This document shows, piece after piece, positions 3,015 through 61,389 of a stretch of DNA of 64,000 bases; position 1 is the stretch's first letter; the number at the start of each line of letters is the position of its first letter. The translations under genes were made by a program, and so were the position numbers. A model generated the notes under the pieces. It saw only the letters and a program-made list of their open reading frames with translations. It had not been told where the DNA came from and searched no databases. Origin of the DNA: a virus; UHGV virus genome UHGV-0092003. One strand, 5' to 3'.

Positions 3015-3111
3015 CCTTTTTTTTGGCAAAGATGATAAGTAAATACTTATTTCTTTGCCTGTTATATATAAGTATCATTAGCGCATCAGAACTACTTCAA
3101 AAGGAAAACAC

Positions 3112-4362
3112 ATGTCGGTCGAATTGCAGAACAAAACAGTCGCTGAAGAAGAGAAACCTCGCGAGAACGAAGAGCAGCCTATTTCGTGCAAATGGTGTGG
3201 CGGCGAGACCCATCATGTCGGGTCTCATTTTATTGGGAAAAAATGCTCTGGTATCCCGAAAGAACACGAAGGCAAGACGCCTAATGAATTGATGAAAATC
3301 TACGTTGCTGCATTCCCTGAAGCACCGACCATGTCTGCCGCTGCAGCCAAACGTCTGAAAGAACATCAGGCCAAAAAGAAAGAAGAACCGGCTGCAGTTC
3401 ACGTTGGGTATGCCGGCTTCGAAGACTATATGGTCGAAAAGGTCGCAGTACATGAAATACTCGGTCTCGATGCTGACTTACTGAAGACGGCATCTGGCGA
3501 GCCTCTGCGCATCACCGTAAACATCAATAAGCCATTCCCGGAGTTTGTGCCAAAAGCAAACCCTGACTATGTGTTCGGCGACATCGAGCTGCTTAAAGAC
3601 GTGCTTATGATGATCGAGATGCGTATCCCTGGATATCTGTGGGGTCACGCAGGAACCGGCAAGAGTACGCTGCCAACTCAGCTTTGCGCTCGACTAAACC
3701 GGCCGATCATCCGTGCGCAGCACACCGCGTCCACTGAAGAGTCGCACATCTGCGGCCAGATTCTTGTGCGTGGTGGTGCAACTTATTTCGAGCCAGGTCT
3801 TCTGGCAAGTGCAATGCGTAACGGGTGGGTTTATCTGGCCGATGAATATGATTTCGCATTCCCGCAAATCCTTGGCGTTTACCAGCCAGTGCTGGAAGGT
3901 GAACCACTGATCATCAAAGAAGCAACCCCGGAGTGGCGCTACGTCGAACCGCATAAACGATTCGCTTTCATCGGAACCGGCAACACCAATGGTTCCGGTG
4001 ATGAAACTGGATTGTACCAGGGTACGAATATCCAGAACGCAGCGAACTTCTCTCGTTTCGGTATCGTCTCACACGTCAAGTACATGGATAGGTCTCATGA
4101 GTCCGCGATGCTTGAGAAAATGGGTTTACCGAAAGTGTACGCGACCATGCTTATCGATTTCGCAACCAGAATCCGTAGTGGGTATGAGGCAGGAAATATC
4201 AGCCAACCCATCGGGCCGCGTGAACTTCGCAATGCAGCATTGATCGGAATGGCGCACAAAAACTTCAAGAAAGGCGTCACGAAGTCTTTCATTAACAAGC
4301 TGCCTTCCACCAGCGCGGTATCCGCAACCGAGATAGCGCAGCGCGTCTTCGGTGATGAATAA
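3112..4362 (+). CDS. cobS: CobS-like AAA+ ATPase (MoxR-type)
   Basis: 416 aa. Walker A GHAGTGKST and Walker B VYLADEYDF. N-terminal CxxC-x-H (CKWCGGETHH). Preceded by the conserved AAAGGAAAACACATG initiation region. Confidence 0.65.
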   Translation: MSVELQNKTVAEEEKPRENEEQPISCKWCGGETHHVGSHFIGKKCSGIPKEHEGKTPNELMKIYVAAFPEAPTMSAAAAKRLKEHQAKKKEEPAAVHVGYAGFEDYMVEKVAVHEILGLDADLLKTASGEPLRITVNINKPFPEFVPKANPDYVFGDIELLKDVLMMIEMRIPGYLWGHAGTGKSTLPTQLCARLNRPIIRAQHTASTEESHICGQILVRGGATYFEPGLLASAMRNGWVYLADEYDFAFPQILGVYQPVLEGEPLIIKEATPEWRYVEPHKRFAFIGTGNTNGSGDETGLYQGTNIQNAANFSRFGIVSHVKYMDRSHESAMLEKMGLPKVYATMLIDFATRIRSGYEAGNISQPIGPRELRNAALIGMAHKNFKKGVTKSFINKLPSTSAVSATEIAQRVFGDE

Positions 4363-4543
4363 AGGTTGTTTTGGTTCAGCATTGACAGCCTCAGAAAAAA
4401 GCGAGATCTGCGCCCGGTGTGGTGACAGATCTCGCTGTCATGATGAAGCCCGCAAAAATATTGAGGCTATGTTTGGAAAGTTTGTCGGATTCCCGATTGA
4501 CAGCATTAAAAATAAAAAAAGAACTACGAAGGAAAGCACATGA
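4352..4543 (+). CDS. small Cys-rich ORF (uncertain)
   Basis: 63 aa with CARCGDRSRC. It overlaps a perfect 10-bp-stem hairpin (4408-4442). May be non-coding. Confidence 0.2.
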   Translation: MMNKGCFGSALTASEKSEICARCGDRSRCHDEARKNIEAMFGKFVGFPIDSIKNKKRTTKEST

Positions 4544-6912
4544 AGGCATTAATGGTACGCACCGATTTTTCTCTTGGTGAGTCGGCGTTGAAAGCAAGCC
4601 GCGTCGTCGCGGTCGCGAAGGAGTTGGGTTACTCGGCCATTATTAGTGCCGACACAATGAATCTGGCGTCCATCATCCCATTGCAGCAGTCGGCCGGCGA
4701 CGACATGGCTGTTATTTGCGGAGTCCGTTTGGTTATTAGTGACAATCCTTTTTATGAAGCAGCTGTTAGAAAAGCCAAAGAGGAAGGCACTGAGATCCCG
4801 GTATGCAAGCTTGGGCGCCCGTACAGCTTCACCGCGCTGATAAAGAACGATGAGGGGTATAAAGATCTGTGTGAACTGATGACGTTGGGCAACCGCCGCG
4901 AGCAGTTTCACTTTTTCCCGCGCATCTCGCTGGAGCAGCTGGCCGAAACGTATTCAAAGGGCAACATCCTTCTGCTGACGTCTGATCGCGATAGCATATT
5001 TCATCGGCAGGACTTCGTTAAAATCCTGACTACATTGCTGGCGGCTGGTGGTCGTGACAACTTCTACAGCGTCGTGTATCCGATTCCTACGCCTCTCTAC
5101 GATCAGTTGAACATGAAGGCGATGAAGGTGGCTAATGCGCTTAAAATCGCCCCTGTTGCGTTCTATCCAGCTTATTACGAGAAAGAAGAGGATGCAGACC
5201 TGCGCGACATTGCGCACATGGTAATCAATAACATCAAAACGGATCAGCCATATCGTTTTCACATCCCACACCAGCGCGACAACTCAATCCAGAACCGCAA
5301 GCATTTGTTGGTTCGCTTGATGGAGTTCTCGAAACGCATGGGAGTAGAGGGAATCAGCTCTGCAATGGTTAACGAGACTCAGGACGAAATCATTGCGGCG
5401 TGCAGCTGGCGCTGGCATGAGATGCCAGTCAGTCTGCCAGTTATGGCGGAAGATGAAGGTGATACGTTGACGCGCATGGCGGCGGAAGGTTTGAAGCGTC
5501 GGTTAACAACGCTTGAATTTGGCTGGAAGCCACCAGCGGAGCAGTACCCTGTCTACATCAACCGTCTACGTTATGAGTTGAGTGTTTTGAAAAAGTTGGG
5601 GTTCTGCGGCTACTTCCTGATGGTTGAAAATCTACTGTCATGGGCGCGTAAACAGGATATCCCGGTCGGGCCAGGTCGTGGATCGTCAGCCGGTTCACTT
5701 GTTGCGTGGGCGATTGGGATCACCAACATCGACCCGCTACGCCACGGTCTCCTGTTTGAGCGTTTCATCAACCCTGAACGTCTGGACTTGCCTGACGCGG
5801 ATCTGGACTTCAGTCAGGCGCAACGACCTCGCGTACTTGAATATCTCGAAGAGCACTACGGCGAAAAATACGTGGCCGGCATTCCTAACTTCTCTTATCT
5901 GGGTATGGCGTCGGCACTCCGAGACACAGCACGTATCTACGGCGTGTCAACGGAAGATATGGCGGTATCTAAGCAGCTGAAGCCATTCGATGATGAGGGA
6001 TTAACTCTCGAAGAGACGCGCGAGCAGCTGGGCGCCCTCGACAAATACGCGAAAGCAAACCCGGAAGCATTCGACGCCGCGTGCAAACTCCAGTCACTGA
6101 TGCGCAGCTATGGCAAGCACGCCGCGGGTGTCATCGTTTCTGGCGTACCACTGACTGAGCGAACACCAGTCGAATTACGCAACGGGGTGCGCTGTATCGC
6201 GTTTGACAAGCGTTTCTGTGAATCAATGGGGCTTATCAAGCTGGACGTGTTAGGGCTGGCTACGCTCGATTTACTGGCTCTCGCTAAACGCTACATCAAA
6301 GAGAACGAGGGGATCGACGTTAACCTCGACGCAATCCCTCTCGATGATAAACGCGTCCTTGAGGGTATGGCGTTGGGTGAAACAACTGGCGTGTTCCAGT
6401 TCGAGTCTGGCGGCATGAGAAACCTGCTTAAAAACCTTGGAAGCGGCATCAAACCAATGTCGTTTGAAATGGCCGTCGCAACTACCGCGCTATATCGCCC
6501 AGGCCCAATGCAGTCCGGCATGATGGATACCTACGTCAGCGTTGCGCGTGGTTATGAGGACGCTCACTCACTTCACCCAAGCCTTGACGAATTGACCAAA
6601 GAAACCAACGGGGTTTTGGTCTATCAGGAACAAATCATGAAAGCGTCGCAGATCCTCGCCGGCTTCTCTCTGTCGGAAGCAGATATGGTAAGGAAGGCGA
6701 TTGGTAAAAAAGACATCGAGAAGATGAAAAAGATTGGCGCCGACTTTTCAGATCGTGCGCAGCTTGGTTGGTTGGAAGTCCAGACTGACGACGGCCAGAT
6801 TGTCACTGTTCATCGCGCCGCGCTTCATCCGTGCTCTGATGGCAAGAAACGCACTGTCGAGCAAGCCATGGAAGATGATGCCGACATTATTGAATTTGAC
6901 ACCTCTAAATAA
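4540..6912 (+). CDS. dnaE: DNA polymerase III alpha (DnaE-type), N-terminal portion: PHP plus palm/fingers
   Basis: 790 aa. Canonical DnaE motif GYFLMVENLLSWARKQDIPVGPGRGSSAGSLVAWAIGITNIDPL. The PHP-like N-terminus continues to AIGKKDIEKMKK, which matches E. coli DnaE AMGKKKPEEMAK. Ends in TAATAA. Confidence 0.85.
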   Translation: MKALMVRTDFSLGESALKASRVVAVAKELGYSAIISADTMNLASIIPLQQSAGDDMAVICGVRLVISDNPFYEAAVRKAKEEGTEIPVCKLGRPYSFTALIKNDEGYKDLCELMTLGNRREQFHFFPRISLEQLAETYSKGNILLLTSDRDSIFHRQDFVKILTTLLAAGGRDNFYSVVYPIPTPLYDQLNMKAMKVANALKIAPVAFYPAYYEKEEDADLRDIAHMVINNIKTDQPYRFHIPHQRDNSIQNRKHLLVRLMEFSKRMGVEGISSAMVNETQDEIIAACSWRWHEMPVSLPVMAEDEGDTLTRMAAEGLKRRLTTLEFGWKPPAEQYPVYINRLRYELSVLKKLGFCGYFLMVENLLSWARKQDIPVGPGRGSSAGSLVAWAIGITNIDPLRHGLLFERFINPERLDLPDADLDFSQAQRPRVLEYLEEHYGEKYVAGIPNFSYLGMASALRDTARIYGVSTEDMAVSKQLKPFDDEGLTLEETREQLGALDKYAKANPEAFDAACKLQSLMRSYGKHAAGVIVSGVPLTERTPVELRNGVRCIAFDKRFCESMGLIKLDVLGLATLDLLALAKRYIKENEGIDVNLDAIPLDDKRVLEGMALGETTGVFQFESGGMRNLLKNLGSGIKPMSFEMAVATTALYRPGPMQSGMMDTYVSVARGYEDAHSLHPSLDELTKETNGVLVYQEQIMKASQILAGFSLSEADMVRKAIGKKDIEKMKKIGADFSDRAQLGWLEVQTDDGQIVTVHRAALHPCSDGKKRTVEQAMEDDADIIEFDTSK

Positions 6913-6928
6913 TAAGTAAAATGTGAAA

Positions 6929-6982
6929 ACAAGTTGTTTTTTAGCTTCTGAAAACAACTTGTTTAATAACAAAGGGAAACAC
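6929..6982 (+). promoter_or_regulatory. two tandem dyad promoter elements inside the dnaE split junction
   Basis: AAAACAAGTTGTTTT and GAAAACAACTTGTTTAA, followed by AAAGGGAAACACATG. Confidence 0.5.
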
Positions 6983-8143
6983 ATGAAGATTACTAAAATC
7001 ATCTCAGAGAAGCCCGGACTCAGCGAATCAAAAGCAAAAGAGGTATGGGATGCTTTCGAGAAATTCGGGTCGTATGGCTTTAACAAATCACACGCAGTGG
7101 CCTATACCGCAATCAGCTACCAGGCAATGTATCTGAAGACTCACCATCCGGCTGCATTCTTCGCCGCCGCACTGACAATTCAGGACGATGAAAAGCATCG
7201 TGCAGTTGTAAAGGATGCGCTGGCACGCGGCGTTATCGTGATGCCACCAGACATCAACCTCTCAACTGACCGCATCGAAATAGTCGAAATGAAGGATGGT
7301 CGGACGGCGTTATATGCCCCCTTCTCAGCTGTCAAAGGTTGTTCTGAAAAAGGCAGCTTAGCCATTATGCGTGCTCGCGAGCGTGTAGGTGGTAAGTTTG
7401 AGTCGCGAGCACAATTTAAGGAAGCGATAGAAGCCAGACTCTGCAATATCCGGGTTCAGGAGGCTCTGGAAGCCGTTGGCGCGTTTGCCAGTATTGAGCC
7501 TGGCAGCGAACCAGCGATGGCGGAATCCCGCCGCAAGGCTCAATCAGAGCTGATGGGAAGCCTCATTATCGATGCGGTAAAAGTGAGTCGCCCGTTCGAG
7601 ATGAATCCGAAACGCCAGGCTGAAGTGTCAATGTTGATGGAAGAGCTGCGTAAAGAGGTCGGGGTGGGCGAAGATCTCGTTACCCCGCATATCGGCGTAT
7701 CGCCAAAAATAATGATTATCCTCGACACAGCAAACGGCAACGATATCAGGACGGGGATCTTCATGGAGAACGGCTACGAAGATTTTAAGGCGAAAATGCT
7801 CGTTAATGGCGATCTGCGCATGAGCGAGGTGTACGTTACCGGCGTCATTAAGCAGGATAAGAAGTTGCCACTGTCCCGCGACGCAGAGAACACCTACATC
7901 GAGTTTATGAAGAAAGAGCTTGAGCTGGTTAAACCAACCTACGTCCTGACGTGTGGTCGCCTGTCGGCCAGTCTCTTCAACGACAAAACCAAGGCAACGG
8001 ATTTGGTCGGACGTAAGGAATACTTTGGCGCAATGGACTTGACCGTATTTTACGGATTCAATCCGGGTATACTTCACTTCAGACCGGAAGAAGGCGAGAA
8101 ACTGGAACTTATTATGGAAGACATTAAGGAGGCATTGTCATGA
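6983..8143 (+). CDS. dnaE: DNA polymerase III alpha (DnaE-type), C-terminal portion
   Basis: Starts at ATG 6983 with its own AAAGGGAAACACATG RBS; the track ORF begins 60 nt earlier. YGFNKSHAVAYTAISYQAMYLKTHHPAAFFAAAL matches DnaE [33 protein letters not shown]. It continues the colinear alignment interrupted at 6912. Confidence 0.8.
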   Translation: MKITKIISEKPGLSESKAKEVWDAFEKFGSYGFNKSHAVAYTAISYQAMYLKTHHPAAFFAAALTIQDDEKHRAVVKDALARGVIVMPPDINLSTDRIEIVEMKDGRTALYAPFSAVKGCSEKGSLAIMRARERVGGKFESRAQFKEAIEARLCNIRVQEALEAVGAFASIEPGSEPAMAESRRKAQSELMGSLIIDAVKVSRPFEMNPKRQAEVSMLMEELRKEVGVGEDLVTPHIGVSPKIMIILDTANGNDIRTGIFMENGYEDFKAKMLVNGDLRMSEVYVTGVIKQDKKLPLSRDAENTYIEFMKKELELVKPTYVLTCGRLSASLFNDKTKATDLVGRKEYFGAMDLTVFYGFNPGILHFRPEEGEKLELIMEDIKEALS

Positions 8144-8772: not shown

Positions 8773-9212
8773 TGGACAAGGCGATCATCAAAGAAGTGAT
8801 GGATGACATCAGGCTTGATACGCATGATTTGGACGCGGTCTGGCGTCGTCAGCCGGAGCTTGTCGCCATTTATGGTTTTAAACAGGTTGAGGCTGAAAGC
8901 GCTGCGAATGCTGCGAAGCGGGATTTGGAATCTATCGAGGCGCGACTCTATTCGACGACGCGTGCCGGTCTGAGTTTCGACGGTGTGAAGATCAGCGAAT
9001 CGACCATTGAAGCCAAAATAAAGTCGGCTCCGGCGTATCTTTCGGCTCGCCAAAAGTACGATGACGCGAAGTACCTCGCTGAGTTTTACAAGCAGGTTGT
9101 TAACGCGCTCGGACACCGTCGAGACATGATCGTTCAGGCGTCTAAAAAGGCAATTTCCGAATACGAAAGAACAGGTGTTGAACGATTCAACGCCCCTAAA
9201 AATGTATCTTGA
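8772..9212 (+). CDS. hypothetical protein
   Basis: 146 aa. Same strand and translationally coupled with the neighbouring small ORF. The antisense ORF 8640-9116 was rejected. Confidence 0.5.
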   Translation: MDKAIIKEVMDDIRLDTHDLDAVWRRQPELVAIYGFKQVEAESAANAAKRDLESIEARLYSTTRAGLSFDGVKISESTIEAKIKSAPAYLSARQKYDDAKYLAEFYKQVVNALGHRRDMIVQASKKAISEYERTGVERFNAPKNVS

Positions 9213-16777: not shown

Positions 16778-16878
16778 TAGGTAAGTAGAAAGATAATTCT
16801 GTGACCGTGTCACTTATTTTTGCAACCTCATTTAGACACATAAGATAACAACTTGTTTATTACAACAAAGGAAAGCAC

Positions 16879-17995: not shown

Positions 17996-18257
17996 ATCGA
18001 AGTCACCGCTGGCGGCATAGTGTACCGCTGACAGCATATCAATTACCGCTGGTAACATACATTGAGCCGCTGACAGCATATCTACAACCGCTGACAGCAT
18101 ACGAAATAAAAAAGCCCTCTATTCGAGGGCTTAAATTTGGTGTGAATAAACGATTCCAGACCTTCCTAATCACCGCTGACAGCATATCTAATAGTCAAAT
18201 CACCGCTGGCAGCATACCATTTGCCGTTCACAGCATATATTGCACCGCTCAGAGCAT
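17996..18257. repeat. iteron array (incA-like), ~9 copies of CCGCTGACAGCATA(T/C) in two sub-clusters
   Basis: Copies at about 17996, 18015, 18037, 18058, 18079, 18171, 18201, 18221, 18243. Spacing is ~21-22 bp. A hairpin (AGCCCTC/GAGGGCT, 18108-18135) separates the sub-clusters. Confidence 0.8.
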
Positions 18258-18258
18258 A

Positions 18259-19371
18259 TCAAAGCAACTTCAGACCGTTACTAAGTATCTCAATTAGCTT
18301 TATATTCTCAGGCGTCAAATCCGCAGAAAGTTCAGCTATCTTCTTGATCATGTTTTGTTTTACGACTTCCAGCTCGCCGTTCTCTTGTGGCCCTTCCACT
18401 TGCTCTGCAGGCTTCTCAGGCTTCGGCGGTTTCTCTTCACCAATGACTTTAAGTTTCGGGTTGCGTCCATGAATCTGAATAAATACAGAGCGACCACGCT
18501 TCACCTCTGAGTAATCGAGGTAGCCAAGCTCTTTAAGAGACTTCAGACCGTTTCGAATGGTCTGATTTTGGGAGCTGATGCTTGCGCTATTCAGATTCAA
18601 CCTCGCACGCAAACGAGCCAGAGATATTGGTGCCGGCCGCGCCGGAAGACTTTCAATGAAGGTGTATAGCGCCTGGGCGGTTTCTTTACGTGGAAGTTTG
18701 TTGATGACCTTCAGCTGGAGAAGAACTTTGTGGTCAAACCGGTATAGCTCTGACAGCTTTGGCTCGGCGTGAAATATGATGGTGTCATTTTTCTCATTGT
18801 AATCCACGCTATTCACCAGATGAACCATGAGCAGAGATATCTTGTTCGAGCCGTCCACGTTCTTCTCTTCGTATGTGCGCTGGAACGAAAGCGTTGTGCG
18901 CATTATCTTCAGCAGGCTGTTTGTAATCCTGTCTCGCAGCGTCTTGCGTATCTGGGAAGATGGATACCCGCAGAACTTGGCAAACTTCGTGATGCTTAGC
19001 TCAACGCGCCCACTGGCCTCCCCATACTCGGCAAGTGATCGGACGACACCAACCCACGTCTTGAAGTCGTGATCCATATCGAGACGTGGCCCGGTTATTT
19101 TGATATCGGAATAACCCTCAGATCTCGCAACCTCCAGTTGCACCAGTTCTTTTGAGGCGTCTATCTGGTTGGAGTTATTTCGTTTACTATTCTTCGTGCC
19201 TTTGAGCGTGGGAACGAACAATCCAAGTCTCATCAACGCAATGGGTTGTACGGTATTGTTGCTGTTCGGGGTGAGGTCGCCTGTGAATAACGCCGGAACA
19301 CTTTCGTCGATCGCGTCATCATCATCGATTAACGGTATGTTTTCTTTCTTCTTTTTTTTGCCTGTGGACAT
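18259..19371 (-). CDS. repA: iteron-binding replication initiator (RepA-like), putative
   Basis: 370 aa minus-strand gene. Flanked on both sides by arrays of the same 15-mer, as in the P1/F replicon layout. N-terminal poly-Lys/acidic region. Product assigned by context only. Confidence 0.55.
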   Translation of the reverse strand: MSTGKKKKKENIPLIDDDDAIDESVPALFTGDLTPNSNNTVQPIALMRLGLFVPTLKGTKNSKRNNSNQIDASKELVQLEVARSEGYSDIKITGPRLDMDHDFKTWVGVVRSLAEYGEASGRVELSITKFAKFCGYPSSQIRKTLRDRITNSLLKIMRTTLSFQRTYEEKNVDGSNKISLLMVHLVNSVDYNEKNDTIIFHAEPKLSELYRFDHKVLLQLKVINKLPRKETAQALYTFIESLPARPAPISLARLRARLNLNSASISSQNQTIRNGLKSLKELGYLDYSEVKRGRSVFIQIHGRNPKLKVIGEEKPPKPEKPAEQVEGPQENGELEVVKQNMIKKIAELSADLTPENIKLIEILSNGLKLL

Positions 19372-19389: not shown

Positions 19390-19494
19390 AAACCGCTGGT
19401 AGCATACTTCATTTGCCGTTAGCAGCATACACAAAACAGTCCACAGCATATCGCACGCCGCTCGCAGCATATATTTTTCCGCTGACAGCATACG
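19390..19494. repeat. iteron array (incC/origin-like), 5 copies of the same 15-mer family
   Basis: ACCGCTGGTAGCATAC, GCCGTTAGCAGCATAC, CACAGCATAT, CCGCTCGCAGCATAT, CCGCTGACAGCATAC. Lies immediately upstream of the rep start codon. Confidence 0.8.
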
Positions 19495-19529
19495 CCAATG
19501 GTCTTTCAGAGCAGGCGTGGCGCGGGTTG

Positions 19530-19620
19530 CGAGGATCGGGGATCTCTTTTGATCTCATATATGATCTATATAGGGATCTTATTATTGGGATCTATCCAGT
19601 TGATATGTGGATAACTTTTC
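19530..19620. other. oriC-like DNA unwinding element: six GATC-initiated 13-mer-like repeats plus a consensus DnaA box
   Basis: GATC at 19534, 19541, 19551, 19563, 19575, 19589 (GATCTCTTTTGAT, GATCTCATATATG, GATCTATATAGGG, GATCTTATTATTG, GATCTATCC). TGTGGATAA at 19606-19614 is a perfect TTATCCACA on the opposite strand. Confidence 0.7.
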
Positions 19621-37523: not shown

Positions 37524-38093
37524 ATGGCGAAGAAAACAACAAAACAAAAAGGCATCAAATACAACCGGCAGAAACATGTCTCTGACAAAAACATGGCGAC
37601 AAAATTTGACCCGCGCTTGAAAGAGGTTGTTCTGTATACGGACGGATCATGCCTGAAGAACCCAGGCGGTGCTGGTGGAGTTGCGGCCATCGTTCGTTTT
37701 GGCGAACACCATAAAACAGTTCAAGAAGGTTTTCGCTCCACAACCAATAACCGCATGGAAATGCTCGCTGCGATCCGAGGGTTGGATCTACTTAATCAAA
37801 AATGCAACGTGACGATCTACACGGATAGCCAGTACCTAATTAATGGCATTTCGCTGTGGATTAAAGGTTGGAAAAAGCGCGGCTGGAAGCTGGCGAACGG
37901 TGAGCGAGTTAAAAATGTGGATCTCTGGCAGGAATTGGATGCGGCGGTGTCCGGTCATCGTGTCCGTTGGTGTTGGGTCAAAGGCCATGATGGAAACCCA
38001 GACAATGAGCTATGCGACATGATGGCGCGATCGGCCGCTGAATCACCGACGATGGTTGATCGTATTTACGAATCAATTTCTGCCTATAATTGA
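37524..38093 (+). CDS. rnhA: ribonuclease HI
   Basis: 189 aa. VVLYTDGSCLKNPGGAGGVAAIV, NNRMEMLAAIRGL, IYTDSQYLINGI, WVKGHDGNPDNELCD. These carry the DEDD catalytic residues in canonical order. Confidence 0.85.
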   Translation: MAKKTTKQKGIKYNRQKHVSDKNMATKFDPRLKEVVLYTDGSCLKNPGGAGGVAAIVRFGEHHKTVQEGFRSTTNNRMEMLAAIRGLDLLNQKCNVTIYTDSQYLINGISLWIKGWKKRGWKLANGERVKNVDLWQELDAAVSGHRVRWCWVKGHDGNPDNELCDMMARSAAESPTMVDRIYESISAYN

Positions 38094-40233: not shown

Positions 40234-40271
40234 CAGAAAACAACTTGTTATCAAAACAAAAAGGAAAGCAC
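40234..40271 (+). promoter_or_regulatory. dyad element plus conserved initiation region
   Basis: CAGAAAACAACTTGTTATCAAAACAAAAAGGAAAGCACATG. Confidence 0.5.
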
Positions 40272-40706
40272 ATGTGCATTCGCTGTGAAGAACGTAAAGC
40301 AAAAAAAGAAGTAATCCTGAGCCACGCCAACGAAATCGCCGATCTTGCCATCTTAGTTGACGGTGGAGTCAAAGGAATCTCGGATGCGCTGCGAATTACA
40401 TCTCGTCTTGAGGCATTGAGTAGTGAAGATCTTCTTGAGCCTATGAGCTTGATCACTCTTATCGCCCACTTTGCCAGCCAGAACAAAGAGCTGGCGGCTG
40501 ACAACAAGCGTCTTCACGAGACTCTGAATTATATGGCGATGAGCGAAAAATCTGCGCCGTCGGACGGTAATAAAATGTCGAATGAAGAGGCGTTGCATGT
40601 CGTCGAAACCATCGTAAATACCTTCGAACTGGCTCAGGCACGAGCAATGGACGGGGCTAATGCCCAGATCCGCGAACTGAAGAATCGCTTTAGCATTAAC
40701 AAGTAA
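40272..40706 (+). CDS. hypothetical coiled-coil protein
   Basis: 144 aa from the conserved AAAAGGAAAGCACATG start. The track begins 27 nt earlier. Confidence 0.5.
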   Translation: MCIRCEERKAKKEVILSHANEIADLAILVDGGVKGISDALRITSRLEALSSEDLLEPMSLITLIAHFASQNKELAADNKRLHETLNYMAMSEKSAPSDGNKMSNEEALHVVETIVNTFELAQARAMDGANAQIRELKNRFSINK

Positions 40707-40749
40707 AAGTAGAGCGCAGCAGAAAGGCTGCGCTTTTCTGGAGCACGCT

Positions 40750-41067
40750 ATGAAATTACCGCTCATTCTCTTAGCCGTTTCTCTGGTCGGCTGCAGCGCT
40801 CGACCTGTTAACACAATCAAATTCCCTGATCGAGCATATCAATACGGTGTCTACGGCACTGTTCGTGTGCAATACGATGTCAGCAAAGACGGCCGCATAG
40901 AAAATATCGTGGTCAACGACGACGATGAAGGCTTTTTCACAAAGCAGATCGTCAATGACATGAAGCATTGGCGGCTTGAGAAAGGCCATCCGAAGAAAGC
41001 CCAGAAACTTATCGTAGCTTTCGAAAGAGATCGCGTTCGAGCTAAAGGTGGATTCCTTGAAAATTAA
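40750..41067 (+). CDS. lipoprotein with TonB-C-like fold (putative superinfection-exclusion type)
   Basis: 105 aa. Lipobox LVGCS. YGVYGTVRVQYDVSKDGRIENIVV resembles the TonB C-terminal domain. Confidence 0.45.
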   Translation: MKLPLILLAVSLVGCSARPVNTIKFPDRAYQYGVYGTVRVQYDVSKDGRIENIVVNDDDEGFFTKQIVNDMKHWRLEKGHPKKAQKLIVAFERDRVRAKGGFLEN

Positions 41068-46602: not shown

Positions 46603-47007
46603 ATGAGTGTTACAAAAAGAAAGATAGCAATGAGTTCTGAATTTGTATTATTGGCTATGTGCTGCTTTGCAGTTTCGGGATGTATCAGTAAGAACCAAGA
46701 CGCACAATCTGCAGGTTATCGACACTCGACATACGTAGGATGCAGTGCAAAATTCGGCAACGCCCCTTTGATACCAAACATGGCAACCATTGTTGACCAG
46801 GGGGATAGCTTTATTGTTCAGGGGAGCGCCGGAGATTTCTATAGTGGAAGCTTAGTGTTGCGTAATGACCAGCTAATCTCCAGCGAACCTGCAGGTGGTT
46901 TAGTTTTCTCTAAGGGAGTAGGTGACTATTCAAAAATGTACCTAGTTCATATCATAAAAGATAATAAACTCACAGTTTTCGACTGCCGCTCTGCGCTTGT
47001 AAAGTAA
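46603..47007 (+). CDS. lipoprotein, hypothetical
   Basis: 134 aa. Lipobox VSGC. Confidence 0.5.
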   Translation: MSVTKRKIAMSSEFVLLAMCCFAVSGCISKNQDAQSAGYRHSTYVGCSAKFGNAPLIPNMATIVDQGDSFIVQGSAGDFYSGSLVLRNDQLISSEPAGGLVFSKGVGDYSKMYLVHIIKDNKLTVFDCRSALVK

Positions 47008-47039
47008 TGACCTTTCACTGACATAAATGATCAACCTCT

Positions 47040-48520
47040 CGCAGTTTGTATAAGAAGAGGTTGATCATCACTTTCCCACCTTATCAACCACTCGCCAACC
47101 CGCTACACCGCTACAAACAAGGCAATAACGCACATAAGAAAACAATTTGTTTGCAGATCAACGTAACGTCAAACGAAAACCCATTTTTGCCCTCATTTTT
47201 TGACATTTGAGAACAGCCACTCTTACACCCGCCAGATACACCACCAGAACGCACAGGTTTCGTTTAAACAAGAAAACCCACACCAACACATCACCACAAA
47301 TCAGAGTCGCTTAGAACGCGTTATAGAGCGTTTACGATGATTAGCCGTTCAACGCGAAATTGAGGAAAAGAACCACCAACAACACATTCAGGCAAAACCC
47401 TCCATAATAACGGAAAGAACGTAACCGGCATACCACCAACCAAAGGAGACGAGGCTCAAAAATCACAAGAACACCGCTCGACTTATCTCAGACATTTGGA
47501 TACCCGCCTACCATTCACAGGCACCGAAACACCACTCAGTTTTCATCAGGCACACCAGAGAAGCGACAGAACGGAAATCCCATACCCGCCATCCATCGAT
47601 AACAACGTAACCTCAAATCCCCAGAATTGCGGAAACCAGACAGCACAAGGCTTAAAGACACATTCACCCAGATAACAACTTGTTTAAACGCACAAGGAAA
47701 CAACCAGCCGCGTACCTGCCATCTCCCAGAGTAAAACGGCGAAACAATCACTTCGCCTATATGGCATTACCCAAGGTAGAACGAATCCCGGATAAGAGAA
47801 CAACCCAGAAGAAAACCACCAGGAAAGAACAACAGCACCAGAGAGAACGACATAAAGAAATCCCGAAGAGAAGAACACTCCCAGATACACATTCACCATA
47901 GAAACGATAGAAAGACTCAGAACGAAATTGGGAATAAGAAAGAGACAGTTTGGGAAGGTCATTTACCGTTTTGGGAAGGTAGCGTTTAGAGGCTCTGGAG
48001 GTATGGGATTGAGACGTTATGGGGGTGAAGAGATTTGGGCGTTTGGGCGTTTGTGAGAGAAGCGTTTGGGCGTTTGTGTAAGAGGGGGAGGAAAAAAGGT
48101 CGCGCTTCCGTTTTCGCATAAATTCAAGCGGTAGTTTCGCAGCCCTGCAAAAAAAACGTCCGCGCCGCCGCTCAAGCCTACGGTTCAGAAACGGGTCGGT
48201 TACCTTCTATGCCGGCCATTAGGGAAAAGGCTGTATACCGAAACGGCGCGGGGAACGGGGAGGTTGCCGTATAGAGACGGTTATCAGCGAGAAGGTTGGC
48301 CGAGGTGCGAAGGAGAATGGCAAGGCTGGTGGTGTGAGGCGACCCAGGCATAGGCTCGTATAAATACGGTCACACCACCAGCGAGCTTCATTCTGCCATG
48401 TAGTTGACGGGCGTCAATATTTTCTGTTCGGTCATTGTATCTCATCACCCTTTTGAAAGTGCTTTTTCGCCTTGGTGTTGTTGCGATAATAAGTCACATA
48501 AGAAAACAACGGAGTAAAGC
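47040..48520. other. 1.5-kb non-coding region with extreme strand compositional skew and internal tandem repeats
   Basis: 47200-47930 is A+C-rich on the + strand. 47940-48110 is G+T-rich with GCGTTTGGGCGTTTGTG-type tandem repeats. Two orphan copies of the dyad promoter (47131-47156, 47669-47707) have no following ORF. The track ORFs here are low-complexity. Confidence 0.6.
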
Positions 48521-48522
48521 AC

Positions 48523-55659: not shown

Positions 55660-56373
55660 ATGGATTGTATCAAAAATATGGACGTTAAAATCAGTATTTT
55701 GACGGTGGAGACAGCGCAGTTACGGCCGAATCCCTGGAATACGAATGTCGTTGGCGCTCGAAACTTCGACAAGCTGAAAAACTCAATCGACCGGCTTGGC
55801 TTTTTTAAGCCGATTCTGGTTCGTGAGTTGCTGGACGGCACTTACGAAATTCTCGGTGGGGAGCACCGCTGGCGTGCCGCTATTGAGCAGGGTATGGCAA
55901 CCGTTCCAGTCACCTCCGTTGGCGTGATTGATGACAACACCGCCAAGCAGATGTCACTGGTTGATAATGAGCGTTACGGTGAAGATGATGCCGTCGAGCT
56001 GCAGCGCCTTATTGAAAGTATTCAGGCTGAAATTGACTATTCGCTGGCAGATATTGCCCCGTATGACGAGGAAATGACTGAAACGCTGGCGCGTGAGTCC
56101 AGTATCGACCTGGAAGAGCTGGGTCTGTTGGGCGAAGAGGAAGATCACGTCGTTGAGCCGGACACTCGCGAGAAGAAGGAGCGTCTTGGCGTTGAACACC
56201 AGACTATGCGCTTCAAGGTTTCGTTTGACACGGCAGAGAGCGTGACGGAAGTCATCAAAACTATCATCCGGGAGCAGGGGATTAAAACCGGCAGCGAAAT
56301 GGAAGACGCTGGCGAAGCTCTGGTGTGGCTCACTCAATATTACAAGGACGTGACCGATGAAAAAGTCGTTTGA
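55660..56373 (+). CDS. ParB N-terminal (ParB/Srx nuclease-like) domain protein 1
   Basis: 237 aa. LRPNPWNTN...FFKPILVREL.DGTYEILGGEHRWRAAIEQG. Acidic C-terminal half. Confidence 0.65.
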   Translation: MDCIKNMDVKISILTVETAQLRPNPWNTNVVGARNFDKLKNSIDRLGFFKPILVRELLDGTYEILGGEHRWRAAIEQGMATVPVTSVGVIDDNTAKQMSLVDNERYGEDDAVELQRLIESIQAEIDYSLADIAPYDEEMTETLARESSIDLEELGLLGEEEDHVVEPDTREKKERLGVEHQTMRFKVSFDTAESVTEVIKTIIREQGIKTGSEMEDAGEALVWLTQYYKDVTDEKVV

Positions 56374-57031
56374 AATTCAGTATCTCGATCCGCGTACTCT
56401 CATCCCGTATGAGAAAAACGCCAAAAAGCACGATGAGCGCCAGATTAAAGACCTGGCTGCAGCCATCATTAGTCGTGGATTTGACCAGCCAATCACCGTT
56501 GACAAGCATCGTGTAATCATTACCGGCCATGGTCGTCGTGAAGCGGCTCTGGTGGCTGGTTTGGCTCTTGTGCCTGTCATTGTTCGTGACGATCTGACAG
56601 AAAGCGCTGTGCGAGCGAAACGTCTCGAAGACAACCGCTTAGCCAGTATCGATTATGACGCTATTCGTATGCAGGAAGAGCTAAACGAACTACTTCAGGA
56701 CGAAGACGTTGAGATCTACGGCTTTGACGAGCGTGAGTTGAAGGTTTTCATCGAAGACCTGACCGAAAAAATGGCTGACGATACGTTGATCGACGACCTG
56801 AATGAAGAGGCTGAGCGCCAGCGAGAAGAGCATAAAGCGATAACGGAAGAAGTCGCCGGTGGCAGAACTCGCATCATCGACATTCTGGGGTTCAAAGATG
56901 TGCCGACCAGCAGTGCGATCGCCGTTGGTGATTTGTTGGCTCACATGGAAGAGAAAACCGGTCTGATGGGAGAAGCCGCTTTTATTGCCTTTGCGGAGAA
57001 GATTTCCGAAGAGGTGGCCGAGTATGAGTAA
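56357..57031 (+). CDS. ParB N-terminal domain protein 2
   Basis: 224 aa. LIPYEKNAKKH...GFDQPITVDKHRVIITGHGRREAALVAGL. Acidic coiled-coil C-terminus. Confidence 0.65.
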   Translation: MKKSFEIQYLDPRTLIPYEKNAKKHDERQIKDLAAAIISRGFDQPITVDKHRVIITGHGRREAALVAGLALVPVIVRDDLTESAVRAKRLEDNRLASIDYDAIRMQEELNELLQDEDVEIYGFDERELKVFIEDLTEKMADDTLIDDLNEEAERQREEHKAITEEVAGGRTRIIDILGFKDVPTSSAIAVGDLLAHMEEKTGLMGEAAFIAFAEKISEEVAEYE

Positions 57032-59487: not shown

Positions 59488-59545
59488 CCAGAAAACAAAT
59501 TGTTTTAAGGCGTCAGGAAGATGCCGAGTGGTAGTAGAGGGAACT
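59488..59545 (+). promoter_or_regulatory. dyad element upstream of terS
   Basis: CCAGAAAACAAATTGTTTTAAGGCG. Confidence 0.45.
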
Positions 59546-60133
59546 ATGACAGAATCCGCAAAAAAAACGCGCCTGTCTCCGGCGCAATGGGCAGAAATTG
59601 AGGTTAAGTGGCGCTCAGGCGAATACACCTTATCGATGCTCGAAGAAGAGTACGGAACTCGCTCTGAGACGTTCTCGCGGTACTTCAAAAAGAAGGGTAT
59701 CGCTAAAGGCTCAGACAGTGTCGGGGAGATGATCCGCGAATCACTGAAGTCGGATGCCGAAATTCGTGCGCGTGCGCGTGCGCAAAAAGTGGAAAGCAGG
59801 AAAGAGGAGTACGACAAGTGGGCTATCTGGCTGAGCGGTCTCACCATTAATCAGATCGCCACCGCCAAGAAGGAAGGCCGCTCACTTAGTTTAGTTGAAG
59901 ACGATATTAAGTCCCTCCAGCGTGCTGCCGCTGTCGTTCAGAAGTGCTTCGACGTGTCGAGCCGCGCTCTCGGTCTGGAAAAAGATGACGTTATTACTGA
60001 CGAAATCCCGAATCTTGTTTTCGGCGAGCTGACTCCGGCCCAAGTAGATGAGCTTAAAAAAATGGACGAGGACAACCTTGTCGATGAAGAGGATCTGTTC
60101 CTTCCAGATGTAGAAGACGAGGGGGAGGAATAA
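59546..60133 (+). CDS. terminase small subunit (putative)
   Basis: ATG 59546 with SD GAGGG. N-terminal HTH-like region (LSPAQWAEIEVKWRSGEYTLSMLEEEYG). Acidic C-terminus. Immediately upstream of TerL with TAATG overlap. Confidence 0.55.
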   Translation: MTESAKKTRLSPAQWAEIEVKWRSGEYTLSMLEEEYGTRSETFSRYFKKKGIAKGSDSVGEMIRESLKSDAEIRARARAQKVESRKEEYDKWAIWLSGLTINQIATAKKEGRSLSLVEDDIKSLQRAAAVVQKCFDVSSRALGLEKDDVITDEIPNLVFGELTPAQVDELKKMDEDNLVDEEDLFLPDVEDEGEE

Positions 60134-61389
60134 TGGCTATTCCATCATCCCTGAGTCTGGTTCAGTTGCATTCGGGGCAGATGAAGGTCTTCAAGTCTCC
60201 ACATCGTTTTAAGGTTGTTTGTGCCGGTCGACGCTGGGGTAAGTCTCGTCTGTCGATCTCCAAAATTATAAAAGCCGCCGCTGCCAATCGTAAGCAGCGC
60301 GTCTGGTATGTTGCGCCGACATACCAGATGGCACGTCAAATCCTGTGGGATGACCTGCAGGAAGTGCTGCCGCGTAAATGGATCGCGAAGAAGAACGACA
60401 CCACGATGACTATCGTCCTAAAAAACGGTAGTGAAATTGCACTGAAGGGCGCTGATAAGCCTGATACGCTGCGTGGTGTTGCGTTGAACTTTGTCGTGCT
60501 CGACGAGTTTCAGGATATGAAGCCCGATACCTGGTACAAGGTACTTCGTCCGACACTTTCGTCTACTCGCGGCGGGGCGCTTATCATCGGAACACCAAAG
60601 GGATTCTCAGAGTTCCATAAACTTTGGATGATAGGCCAGAACCCGGAGATGCAAGCGAAAGGTTTGTGGAAGAGCTGGCAGTTTGTGACCGCGGATTCTC
60701 CGTTTGTTCCAGACAGTGAGATCGAGGCGGCGAAGAATGATATGGACCCTAAATCGTTCGCGCAGGAGTACCTTGCGTCGTTCGAAAACATGTCTGGGCG
60801 CGTATATTACCCGTTCGATCGCAACGTGCATGTCAGGCCGCTACAGTTCAATCCGCGTTTGCCAATCTGGGTTGGTCAGGACTTCAACATCGACCCAATG
60901 TCCTCGGTGATCCTGCAGCCGCAGCCGAACGGTGAAGTATGGGCTATTGATGAGGTTGTTCTGTTTTCGTCGAATACCTCAGAAGTGTGTGATGAGCTGG
61001 AGAGACGTTACTGGCGTCAGAAAAGCCAGGTCACGATTTTCCCTGACCCGGCCGGCGCATATCGACAGCACGCTCGCGGTGAGTCTGATGTGGACATCTT
61101 CAAGGAGAAGGGGTTCATGCGAGTGGATCACCCGAAGAAGCACCCACCGATTGCCGACCGCGTGAACGCAGTAAACAGGTTGCTGCTGACCGCTTCAGGT
61201 GACGTTCGTCTGTACATTGATCCGAAGTGTAAGCATTTGATTGAGTCACTTGAGAAGGTGATTTACAAACCTGGCGGTCGAGATATTGATAAAACAGGGA
61301 ACGTCGAGCACAGTGCCGATGCTCTGGGTTATCCAATTCATCGTCGCTTCCCGGTTAAAACTCGTGTTATTCTTGGCGGATCTAGATAA
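60133..61389 (+). CDS. terminase large subunit
   Basis: 418 aa. Walker A VVCAGRRWGKS. Walker B NFVVLDEFQDM. C-terminal RNase-H-like nuclease region with conserved Asp (GQDFNIDPMS, FPDPAG). Confidence 0.8.
   Translation: MAIPSSLSLVQLHSGQMKVFKSPHRFKVVCAGRRWGKSRLSISKIIKAAAANRKQRVWYVAPTYQMARQILWDDLQEVLPRKWIAKKNDTTMTIVLKNGSEIALKGADKPDTLRGVALNFVVLDEFQDMKPDTWYKVLRPTLSSTRGGALIIGTPKGFSEFHKLWMIGQNPEMQAKGLWKSWQFVTADSPFVPDSEIEAAKNDMDPKSFAQEYLASFENMSGRVYYPFDRNVHVRPLQFNPRLPIWVGQDFNIDPMSSVILQPQPNGEVWAIDEVVLFSSNTSEVCDELERRYWRQKSQVTIFPDPAGAYRQHARGESDVDIFKEKGFMRVDHPKKHPPIADRVNAVNRLLLTASGDVRLYIDPKCKHLIESLEKVIYKPGGRDIDKTGNVEHSADALGYPIHRRFPVKTRVILGGSR

Follow-up and report, generated by a model that had tools for sequence, protein, structure and literature searches.

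What keeps 1.5 kb of a phage genome free of genes, and gives its two strands such different compositions? The question is raised by positions 47008–48522 of the virus genome UHGV-0092003, in a stretch of 64,000 nt that was analysed as a whole and that we call the window. This non-coding region lies between a coding sequence (CDS) ending at 47007 and the next CDS (48523/48546), and the gap of 1,538 bp is the largest true CDS-free gap in the annotated record. We take the region to be a composite cis-acting non-coding control element, and found a real, modular DNA unit in every SSU5-family relative checked (>900 plasmids and phages). Our preferred reading, to which we give a probability of about 0.3, is that it serves as a lytic-cycle, transcription-activated, R-loop-type replication origin or control region; its function is unproven.

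The earlier note on this DNA had seen no credible open reading frame (ORF) here, and this is borne out by the absence of a consistent CDS in any of 12+ annotated relatives. A protein-coding gene on either strand was ruled out by an alignment of ten homologues (~80–96% identity), in which indels do not keep to triplets (1, 21–23, 33–34 and 43 nt), variable sites show neither codon periodicity nor a third-position excess (40/42/36 and 36/29/33), and small ORFs on either strand shift frame and length from relative to relative. ORFs have been annotated within the element at 8892–9131 and 9507–9704 of L015, 1882–2238 and 2728–3132 of L081, 2658–2852 of L002, 2010–2351 and 2610–2804 of L007, and 7325–7447 of L017 (such labels denote relatives’ sequences, L015 being SSU5; W denotes the window’s own element type). 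SSU5_108/109, CYRAN_103/104, pJN226_0035 and the PGAP hypotheticals in K. oxytoca and K. michiganensis plasmids are almost certainly spurious ORFs. A search with Rfam covariance models found no family match in the element, the two chance-level matches (E ~0.3) both lying outside it, and a search for tRNA and tmRNA genes found none.

The 15 kb around the element is 99.9% identical to the Klebsiella pneumoniae plasmid pMB7868_2 (111.6 kb, non-mobilizable) and 85–95% identical to dozens of further Klebsiella plasmids of 108–115 kb. Annotation of the replicon includes portal, terminase, capsid and tail genes and a RepB plasmid initiator, and the DUF4942 methylase upstream of the element shares 63% identity with its counterpart in Salmonella phage SSU5. 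From the phage genes, RepB, the SSU5-like methylase and the plasmid identity together it follows that the replicon is a Klebsiella phage-plasmid of the SSU5 supergroup, as that supergroup has been defined (PMC7969092).

A BLAST search of the phage collection with the W-type sequence gave no match; the family link was made via the plasmid collection, the methylase as protein anchor and a degenerate pattern. Among plasmids, the W-type element was found in 77 records, and the SSU5 element as query matched 859 records from Klebsiella, Escherichia, Enterobacter and Salmonella, including pHCM2 (S. Typhi) and pECOH89, with the matched region unannotated in almost all of the 859. SSU5 itself carries the element (L015, 8383–9811), as do 12 of 12 SSU5-like phage-collection records, including Cyrano, PhiR41_1 and pJN2-26, and a degenerate 37-nt core pattern retrieved 55 IMG/VR contigs along with Kluyvera and Buttiauxella genomes. 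An exact match to the enterobacterial core motif in a 604-nt contig labelled Catenulispora yoronensis (L080, NZ_BAAAQN010000196.1) is probably contamination of an actinomycete assembly. Across relatives the element is kept in one orientation between variable gene cassettes. Remoter Klebsiella and Enterobacter relatives have a body without BLAST similarity, yet a CDS-free gap of 1.5–1.9 kb occupies the same place with the same A+C profile. The Citrobacter plasmid NZ_CP056343.1 carries a truncated W-type left fragment (577 nt; L008, 2501–3077) and a full SSU5-type element (L082, 3329–4925) ~5 kb apart, which suggests recombination between lineages at the element; one full copy is still retained despite the truncated one. 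The earlier note had named a lack of conservation across relatives among the outcomes that would refute it; the element proved to be family-wide, non-coding and conserved. Full-text literature searches and the key phage-plasmid papers contained no description of it. The element is real, family-defining and unannotated, with an unusual compositional design; its kind (origin, control region or terminator) is probably a known one, whereas its form is new.

Composition of the two strands

On the + strand, A+C reaches 0.68 in the best 800-nt interval, against a window mean of 0.505 (standard deviation, sd, 0.028). The excess holds at 68% over ~840 nt, which exceeds the window mean by 6.4 sd, and nowhere else in the 64 kb does A+C reach 0.62. 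The strand had been described as almost devoid of G+T; the skew is real, but the description is overstated, as G+T amounts to 32% at 47060–47900. A switch to a G+T-rich block, also claimed from the sequence, is confirmed: the composition flips at ~47905, and 47930–48110 has G 0.41, T 0.26 and C 0.09, while 48000–48099 (G 46 / C 5) is the most extreme 100-nt stretch in the window. GC content stays at 0.40–0.56 throughout the element. The CA-rich body itself (47229–47905, + strand) has A 0.38–0.40, C 0.29–0.30, G 0.16–0.17 and T 0.14–0.16. Across clades it measures 650–700 nt (A 0.33–0.40, C 0.28–0.34, G 0.12–0.20, T 0.13–0.16), and its composition and architecture are kept in clades without BLAST similarity.

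Regional mutation bias was ruled out as the cause of the skew by the neighbouring 4-fold degenerate sites, which are unbiased (A+C = 0.488 in ten flanking + strand genes). The compositional boundaries of the element are sharp; the substitution spectrum, dominated by transitions, is uninformative on mutation bias. Between W and four relatives the body diverges by 14–15%, as against 19–35% at 4-fold sites of the flanking genes, and judged by these rates it is under purifying selection. Folded as RNA, the + strand of the body reaches only −0.138 kcal/nt with 37% of bases paired, compared to −0.301 ± 0.026 kcal/nt and 61% for 60 random window segments, which makes it the least structured stretch in the window by >6 sd. 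The minus strand folds ordinarily (−0.28 kcal/nt), because of G.U pairs. Taken together, slow divergence and weak folding of the + strand suggest that the selected property is an unfoldable + strand with polar motifs. C exceeds G on this strand over ~850 nt, among the longest such runs in the window, and RNA transcribed leftward shows the window’s maximum C–G excess, which at 47996 amounts to 41 per 100 nt. The inverted repeats I9, I12 and I15 represent long-range complementarity between CA and GT parts; they were set aside, being neither nested nor covarying and in part expected from composition.

The polar motifs of the body are degenerate copies of (C/T)GCCAT(T/C)(A/C)CC, of the GCCATTACC type, at ~47427, 47587, 47716 and 47763 on the + strand, with positions kept across clades. 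Clade-wide, the body holds 4–6 copies of (C/T)GCCATTAC(C/T), always on the same strand, at offsets of ~270–290, 411–451, 546 and 627–640 nt from the B2 block described below. The body also contains a dyad (47674–47684, + strand) and, on the minus strand at 47738–47757, a hairpin GGCGAAGTGATTGTTTCGCC followed by GTTTTACTCT, found by terminator scan, which looks like an intrinsic terminator for leftward transcription. This hairpin is invariant in 10 of 10 W-type sequences and was not found in other clades.

Anatomy from left to right

The genes upstream of the element differ in every clade, and similarity between clades begins at a hairpin, B1, which on this alignment is the left boundary. B1 has 13 bp (+ strand; arms 47027–47039 and 47056–47068, inverted repeat I4, 100% complementary), a loop TTT(C/G)TATAAGA (TTTCTATAAGA) and then a GTTGATC box at 47059–47065; the loop and GTTGAyC are invariant in all clades, and the stem differs by clade (CAACCTCT/AGAGGTTG in W, GATTCTT/AAGAATC in pECOH89). 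There follows an ORF-less, promoter/leader-like cassette (47117–47151, + strand) with a degenerate −10-like GCAATAAC, the leader CACATAAGAAAACAA (47131–47145) and the dyad AACAATTTGTT (47141–47151), in a region where AAGAAAACAA is invariant across all clades. The B2 boxes come next on the same strand: ATCAAC (47157–47162), GTCAAA (47168–47173) and TTGACA (47200–47205), with CTCTTACACCC (47218–47228) a further 17 nt on. The last two could be a promoter-like −35/−10 pair or simply paired boxes. The B2 boxes are nearly invariant in 42 distinct sequences from 6 clades, and a 9-codon ORF in the SSU5 B2 block was discarded as not conserved. A boxA-like CTCTTA in B2 is at most a lead.

Altogether the left core spans ~230 nt, is nearly invariant in all clades and keeps a shared order of loop hairpin, GTTGATC, ~70 variable C-rich nt, CAyAAGAAAACAA, ATCAAC, GTCAAC, ~25 nt, TTGAC(A/G), 17 nt and CTTAyAcCC. 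Its boxes are complementary to B1 in nested order (TATAAG/CTTATA, GTTGAT/ATCAAC, GTCAAC/GTTGAC), with 97.5% of cells paired, compared to 25–42% when the partner is slid. Thirteen of the 18 nested pairs never vary, only one covaries (C-G, A-U and U-A variants), and mismatches favour neither strand.

The dyad and leader of the left core recur through the genome. The window holds 21 copies of the dyad AACAAnTTGTT where 3.2 would be expected, every one of them between genes (for example at 6928, 6953, 15071, 16847, 38746, 40239, 42305, 43317, 43368, 45919, 46212, 49219, 49748, 50887 and 59494), and the leader CACATAAGAAAACAA occurs 14 times against 2.5 expected. In the recurring cassette, the dyad overlaps a TTGTTT −35 and is followed by ~18 nt, TGnGATAATAA, the leader CAnnAGAAAACAA, a ribosome-binding site (RBS) and ATG; in a second arrangement the dyad lies directly 3′ of the leader. 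Such cassettes precede many small gene cassettes, and the genes flanking the element differ in almost every relative. Presumably AACAAnTTGTT is the operator of the master repressor, and the cassette repeat is probably a recombination handle for cassette shuffling. The earlier note had seen two orphan dyad promoters firing into the region. The dyads exist, at 47141–47151 and 47674–47684, but neither has the TGnGATAATAA −10, and in Cyrano lysogens the + strand is silent. Real gene cassettes continue from leader and dyad into an RBS and ATG, while these two copies have neither an ORF nor a good −10, and as far as their motifs tell they are instances of the genome-wide operator/leader cassette, not demonstrated promoters.

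To the right of the body lies the G+T-rich, C-poor block (47906–48110, + strand), with 7–9 runs of G3 or longer and a variable repeat copy number. The direct repeats reported for it are present: TTTGGGAAGGT at 47949 and 47970, and 22-nt units GCGTTTGGGCGTTTGTG at 48039 and 48062, all on the + strand, with copy number varying between relatives. The claim of a 17-mer present nearly three times does not hold as worded, there being two full copies and a partial TTTGGGCG (Tandem Repeats Finder gives TTTGGGCG ×2.5). Most clades have a G-rich, C-poor block with 4–9 G-runs at 740–860 nt downstream of B2. Its end overlaps B3 (48080–48130, + strand), made up of the G-run cluster AAGAGGGGGAGG, its CU-rich partner CGCTTCCGTTTTCGC and the invariant ATTCAAGC (48122–48129). 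B3 has the shared ending ...GGGAAGGGGAAGAGGGGG-ATCGC..TTTC.CCGTAnAAATTCAAGC, and no clade departs from its ATTCAAG and CGCT.C..TT.C. The B3 hairpin resembles a + strand terminator in several clades, its tail being T-rich in the L013, pECOH89 and L014 types, a likeness read from terminator scans that are noisy on the GT-rich strand. A candidate RfaH ops site (AGCGGTAGTTTC at 48126) was dropped, as the resemblance is not conserved in relatives.

Further right, B4 consists of direct repeats of the GGGAAA(A/C)GG / GAAACGG family (48188, 48222, 48240 and 48251, + strand), followed by CCGTATAGAG at 48267–48276. Relatives have 3–6 copies, all on the same strand, and a spacing of exactly 22 nt is seen for some of them (Cronobacter 1083/1105/1127/1149, L013 1127/1149/1171, and in part SSU5). 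A 13-bp hairpin follows (48325–48382, minus strand, inverted repeat I7, 100% complementary) with the Chi sequence GCTGGTGG as part of one arm and the Chi complement as part of the opposite arm. A leftward transcript is predicted to start with this hairpin, which dominates the minimum-free-energy fold of the minus-strand RNA. Read directly from the alignment, the hairpin has one compensatory pair, G-C in W and A-T in relatives, and at one further position the + strand would pair C-A where the minus strand has G.U. Chi is strongly enriched across the 64 kb: the + strand has 13 copies and the minus strand 9, where chance would give ~1 per strand. The leftward promoter, an extended −10 type predicted by promoter scan, lies at 48417–48390 (minus strand; TTGACG 48417–48412, 16 nt, TGgCAGAAT, −10 at 48395–48390). 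It recurs as TTGnnn-16-TGnCAsAmT at a conserved position, with the 16-nt spacer and TG, in the W, L013 and pECOH89 types and in L064/L030; its −35 and −10 are invariant and its spacer sequence varies. Among close relatives, the segment at ~48270–48400 (alignment A1 columns 1325–1480) exists as two unrelated alternative modules, one in W, L002–L005, L010 and L011 and the other in L006, L009 and L012, and the promoter to its right is kept with both. The SSU5/pHCM2 and L014 types lack this promoter. A promoter/leader of the downstream operon (48453–48522, + strand; extended −10 TGCGATAAT at 48482–48490, leader CACATAAGAAAACAA at 48495–48509, RBS GGAG) forms a direct repeat, D6, with 47124–47145. 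The block is conserved in the W, L013 and L014 types and is the right boundary of the element.

A possible lytic origin and its rivals

Expression can be followed in a homologue of another clade, that of Cyrano, a plasmid prophage of E. coli LF82 for which strand-specific RNA-seq values from lysogens are tabulated for the + strand (PMC9928086, S1 Table) as log2(FPKM+5), FPKM being fragments per kilobase per million mapped reads and 2.32 the floor. The authors annotated two ORFs in the element, of which CYRAN_103 covers the core and the left of the body and CYRAN_104 the part to the right (PMC9928086). In LB, CYRAN_103 stands at 2.32/2.32 (0 FPKM) and CYRAN_104 at 4.09/3.52; in four other conditions they reach ≤4.27 (~14 FPKM) and ≤4.66 respectively, with upstream CYRAN_102 at 6.0–9.2 and downstream CYRAN_105 at up to 7.8 (PMC9928086). 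In lysogens the + strand is a transcriptional desert between active units, and the Cyrano values show that upstream transcription ends at the element’s left edge. Elsewhere on Cyrano, the small hypothetical gene CYRAN_43 (40268–40822, minus strand), beside integrase and repressor, exceeds the background expression of the prophage ~720-fold in lysogens of LF82, by far the highest value on that prophage (PMC9928086, S1 Table).

The replicon has its plasmid origin elsewhere. repB (18259–19371, minus strand) is flanked by ~10 and ~5 iterons ACCGCTGACAGCATA spaced by 21 nt (18000–18265 and 19390–19497), and a GATC-rich block with the DnaA box TGTGGATAA lies beside it (19520–19620), so that the plasmid replicon (18.0–19.6 kb) is organised like that of P1 or RepFIB. 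The B4 repeats are unrelated to the repB iterons, and a role of the element as plasmid origin or inc locus is ruled out by these modules, unrelated and 28 kb away. The replicon also encodes RNase HI (rnhA, 37593–38093), a DnaB-like helicase, a DnaE-type polymerase, a ligase and a 5′–3′ exonuclease. The DnaE-type Pol III alpha (PHP, NTPase and finger domains) is apparently split into ORFs at 4540–6912 (790 aa) and 6923–8143 (406 aa), both missing from the PLSDB gene table, and may be a pseudogene or reflect an intein or frameshift. At 1002–4362, a CobT-like VWA protein (670 aa) is paired with a neighbouring AAA ATPase (416 aa).

Among the candidates put forward by the earlier note, a lytic origin is the best fit, though unproven. 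We counted in its support the family-wide conservation and selection, the unstructured + strand, the G-run block downstream of a promoter-like cassette, the direct repeats with their 22-nt spacing in several clades, the convergent leftward promoter, the replication genes and the silence of the + strand in lysogens, which is as expected for a lytic function. Leading strands carry an excess of G and T, so the CA-to-GT switch on the + strand has the polarity of an origin and not of a terminus. By nearest-neighbour parameters, the calculated advantage of a rightward RNA:DNA hybrid over the duplex grows through the body and is greatest, for the window as a whole, at 48245 (z = −3.6; −22.7 kcal per 100 nt), and a leftward hybrid is disfavoured.

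We infer each step of the route that such an origin would take, starting from the observed anatomy, conservation, selection on sequence and composition and lysogen silence of the + strand, and from the exclusion of coding and of a plasmid origin. Once derepressed, the ORF-less early promoter/leader cassette of the left core would send RNA polymerase rightward across ~700 nt in which neither the transcript nor the displaced + strand could fold. At the G-run block (G 46%, C 5%), the G-rich RNA would stay hybridised to the C-rich template, and phage RNase HI would trim the hybrid to a primer from which the phage’s DnaE-type replicase could start. Proteins or helicase could assemble on the 22-nt-phased repeats and on the right-hand hairpin. 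In lysogens, silence might be kept by the repressor, acting at the dyad sites, and by Rho. Transcripts running in from left or right would be rich in C and poor in G, and an antisense regulator may come from the conserved leftward promoter.

Several observations weigh against this reading. The promoter calls are weak by consensus (the leader cassette at 47117–47151, TTGACA-17-TTACAC at 47200–47228 and the leftward promoter), and the Cyrano + strand stays close to the floor even under partial induction of the genes beside it. Rho would find an ideal substrate in the CA-rich leader, and without antitermination polymerase might never reach the G block. The B4 repeats of W are 3–4 in number, irregular and 28–52 nt apart, and the hybrid-stability peak, though first in the window, is not a large outlier, as other loci reach −19. 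Fold z-scores for the left core and the right part are unremarkable (−1.15, the value of the leftward minus-strand RNA, −0.46 and −0.15), and a compact structured RNA is likewise unsupported by them. A replicon-wide skew scan found no skew switch at the element. The element has neither a clear AT-rich unwinding element nor a canonical DnaA box; its best DnaA-like match is TTACCCACA (8/9), inside the GCCATTACC motif, and to take this for a DnaA box is at most a lead. The genes flanking the element are small and variable and have no Pfam match, and no initiator gene is adjacent; SSU5_107 (~400 aa), upstream in several clades, also has no Pfam match and is absent beside the W-type copy.

Transcription-primed (R-loop) origins include those of ColE1 (RNA II/RNA I), T4 (oriF and oriG) and T7 (primary origin) and the vertebrate mitochondrial control region. 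The element, as a putative origin, would share with them a promoter into non-coding DNA, for which it has weak candidates, G-rich RNA on a C-rich template downstream, an encoded RNase H and a predicted convergent or antisense promoter. With mitochondrial DNA it further shares a non-coding control region of ~1 kb, A+C versus G+T strand asymmetry and conserved G-run blocks. It differs in a leader of ~700 nt that is selected to be unstructured, where that of ColE1 RNA II is highly structured, in a replicase of DnaE type and not Pol I, with rnhA present, and in its extra 22-nt-phased repeats. Iteron origins (P1 oriR/incA, lambda ori, R6K, pSC101 and the repB replicon of this phage-plasmid) resemble it in their one-strand direct repeats in non-coding DNA, which in the element are exactly 22 nt apart in some clades and 28–52 nt apart in W, but the repeat core of the element is 8–12 nt long and comes without an adjacent initiator gene or a GATC/DnaA-box/AT-rich module.

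The first alternative to a lytic origin, unlikely but deserving attention, is a bidirectional Rho-dependent transcription insulator, in which Rho would stop polymerase from both sides and so isolate lysogeny-expressed cassettes from lytic genes or shield a central DNA site. The rightward RNA of 47060–47900 is C-rich, G-poor, unstructured and untranslated, and the leftward RNA of 48110–47930 is even more C-rich, which would make an ideal Rho substrate in both directions; at least 80 nt of untranslated, unstructured RNA with C > G, as in a Rho utilization (rut) site, are present. In Cyrano the upstream gene is at ~590 FPKM, and an ORF that begins 110 nt further on is at 0–7 FPKM; the operon to the right is served by a promoter of its own. 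The upstream mRNA could have its 3′ end protected by the B1 hairpin. Such an abrupt transcript drop and such RNA also liken the element to Rho-dependent terminators such as lambda tR1. Yet a rut site needs ~80 nt, and the element, ~10 times longer than needed and facing both directions, is conserved over 1.5 kb with positioned motifs unrelated to termination, a ~230-nt core, phased repeats and promoters; many other cassette junctions in the genome do without it. Insulation may be a property of the element and not its purpose.

Somewhat more doubtful is a long non-coding RNA of ~0.9 kb, made from the + strand in the lytic phase, which would act in trans and titrate, as sponge or decoy, either a protein that binds RNA (Hfq, Rho or S1) or GU-rich seeds of small RNAs such as GcvB. 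The nested boxes would be its structured 5′ domain, followed by a CA-rich body without structure that displays 4–6 GCCAUUACC sites and by a G-rich 3′ hairpin. Consistent with this are the motif copies, which share one strand, keep their positions and lie in structure-free sequence, the nested complementarity of the left core with one covarying pair and G.U variants, the promoter/leader cassette without an ORF, and the B3 hairpin with its T-rich + strand tail in several clades. Short single-stranded repeated motifs are also found in CsrB/RsmZ, CrcZ and the phage anti-sRNA AgvB, and the CA-richness recalls GcvB or Hfq/Crc targets; unlike these RNAs of 0.1–0.4 kb, the element’s transcript would be ~0.9 kb, has no GGA-in-loop hairpins and is undetected where tested. 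The Cyrano homologue gave 0 FPKM in LB lysogens and ≤~14 FPKM in four other conditions despite >10-fold induction of neighbours (PMC9928086). This silence over the left, CA-rich part, while flanking genes are expressed, argues against an abundant sponge RNA in that state and contradicts, for lysogens, the earlier suggestion of a protein-sequestering CA-repeat RNA; long non-coding transcripts are possible only in the lytic phase or on the minus strand. Such an RNA would, moreover, be a prime target of Rho and exonucleases, has no Rfam match and no significant fold z-score, and would leave the 22-nt-phased repeats and the convergent promoter unexplained. On a par with it in our estimate, by analogy with the mitochondrial case, is that the element might be a D-loop-like control region encoded by composition, with one strand selected to be unfoldable (A+C only) for ~700 nt and bearing polar motifs, Rho traps in both directions and a G-run block that nucleates an R-loop. 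If so, it would represent a new class of origin or switch, in which base composition, and not sequence, programmes directionality and silencing.

An antisense or immunity RNA unit is improbable. Here the leftward promoter (48417–48390) would produce a small non-coding RNA, beginning with the 13-bp hairpin and carrying CU-rich complements of the GGGAAAAGG repeats, that would control rightward transcription or translation in cis or trans, like P1 c4, ColE1 RNA I or lambda oop. That the extended −10 promoter is kept in four sequence groups, even across cassette replacement, and that the hairpin has a compensatory pair and a G.U on the minus strand only, would fit. So would the A8 tract at 48150–48157, which would give a U8 run in the leftward RNA, and the minus-strand hairpin-plus-U-run candidates found 940–1010 nt downstream of B2 in many clades. 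The U-runs are, however, simply complements of GGGAAAA repeats, the fold z-score does not go beyond −1.15, neither the SSU5/pHCM2 types nor the L014 type have the promoter, and the unit would cover only the right third of the element and not the CA-rich body.

We give very little credence to a packaging (pac/cos) site, a plasmid centromere or a loading array for the two ParB-like proteins encoded at 55660–57031. Non-coding arrays of short same-strand repeats with GTTGAyC boxes, some containing GATC, are what speaks for these. The repeat core GGGAAA may be loosely reminiscent of ParB/Noc half-sites. The terminase genes (59528–61389) lie ~12 kb away and there is no universal cluster of P1-type hexamers, TGATC(A/G) being absent in the L014 type, which makes the pac site of the earlier note unlikely; parA is ~47 kb from the element here and 3.4 kb in Cyrano, without synteny, and the repeats are direct and not palindromic. 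PeSL-type promoter/stem-loop sequences mark cassette boundaries in T4-like phages, and the array of small cassettes around the element, each with the same promoter/operator/leader repeat that the element’s edges reuse, is similar, but the element is a conserved non-coding unit of 1.5 kb and not a cassette boundary. Equally remote is a functionless graveyard of decayed cassettes or a product of strand-specific mutation bias, despite body relics that resemble promoter-leader-RBS cassettes (47660–47705 and the cassette at 16847, for example) and a spectrum dominated by transitions: it is largely refuted by family-wide conservation of length, architecture and motif positions, divergence slower than at neighbouring synonymous sites, unbiased adjacent 4-fold sites and sharp boundaries.

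Bearing on the SSU5 family

Few extrachromosomal elements are as common in Klebsiella, E. coli, Enterobacter and Salmonella Typhi (pHCM2) as the phage-plasmids of the SSU5 family, some of which bear resistance genes. To our knowledge, nothing is known of how they switch from plasmid to lytic replication, and a universally conserved, unannotated cis element of 1.5 kb offers a concrete experimental target. Its nearly invariant 37-nt core is usable as a typing marker, having found 55 viral contigs in one scan, and the spurious ORF calls within it (SSU5_108/109, CYRAN_103/104 and those of PGAP) can be corrected in public records. The element is also a rare clear case of selection on strand composition itself, kept across clades without detectable sequence similarity.

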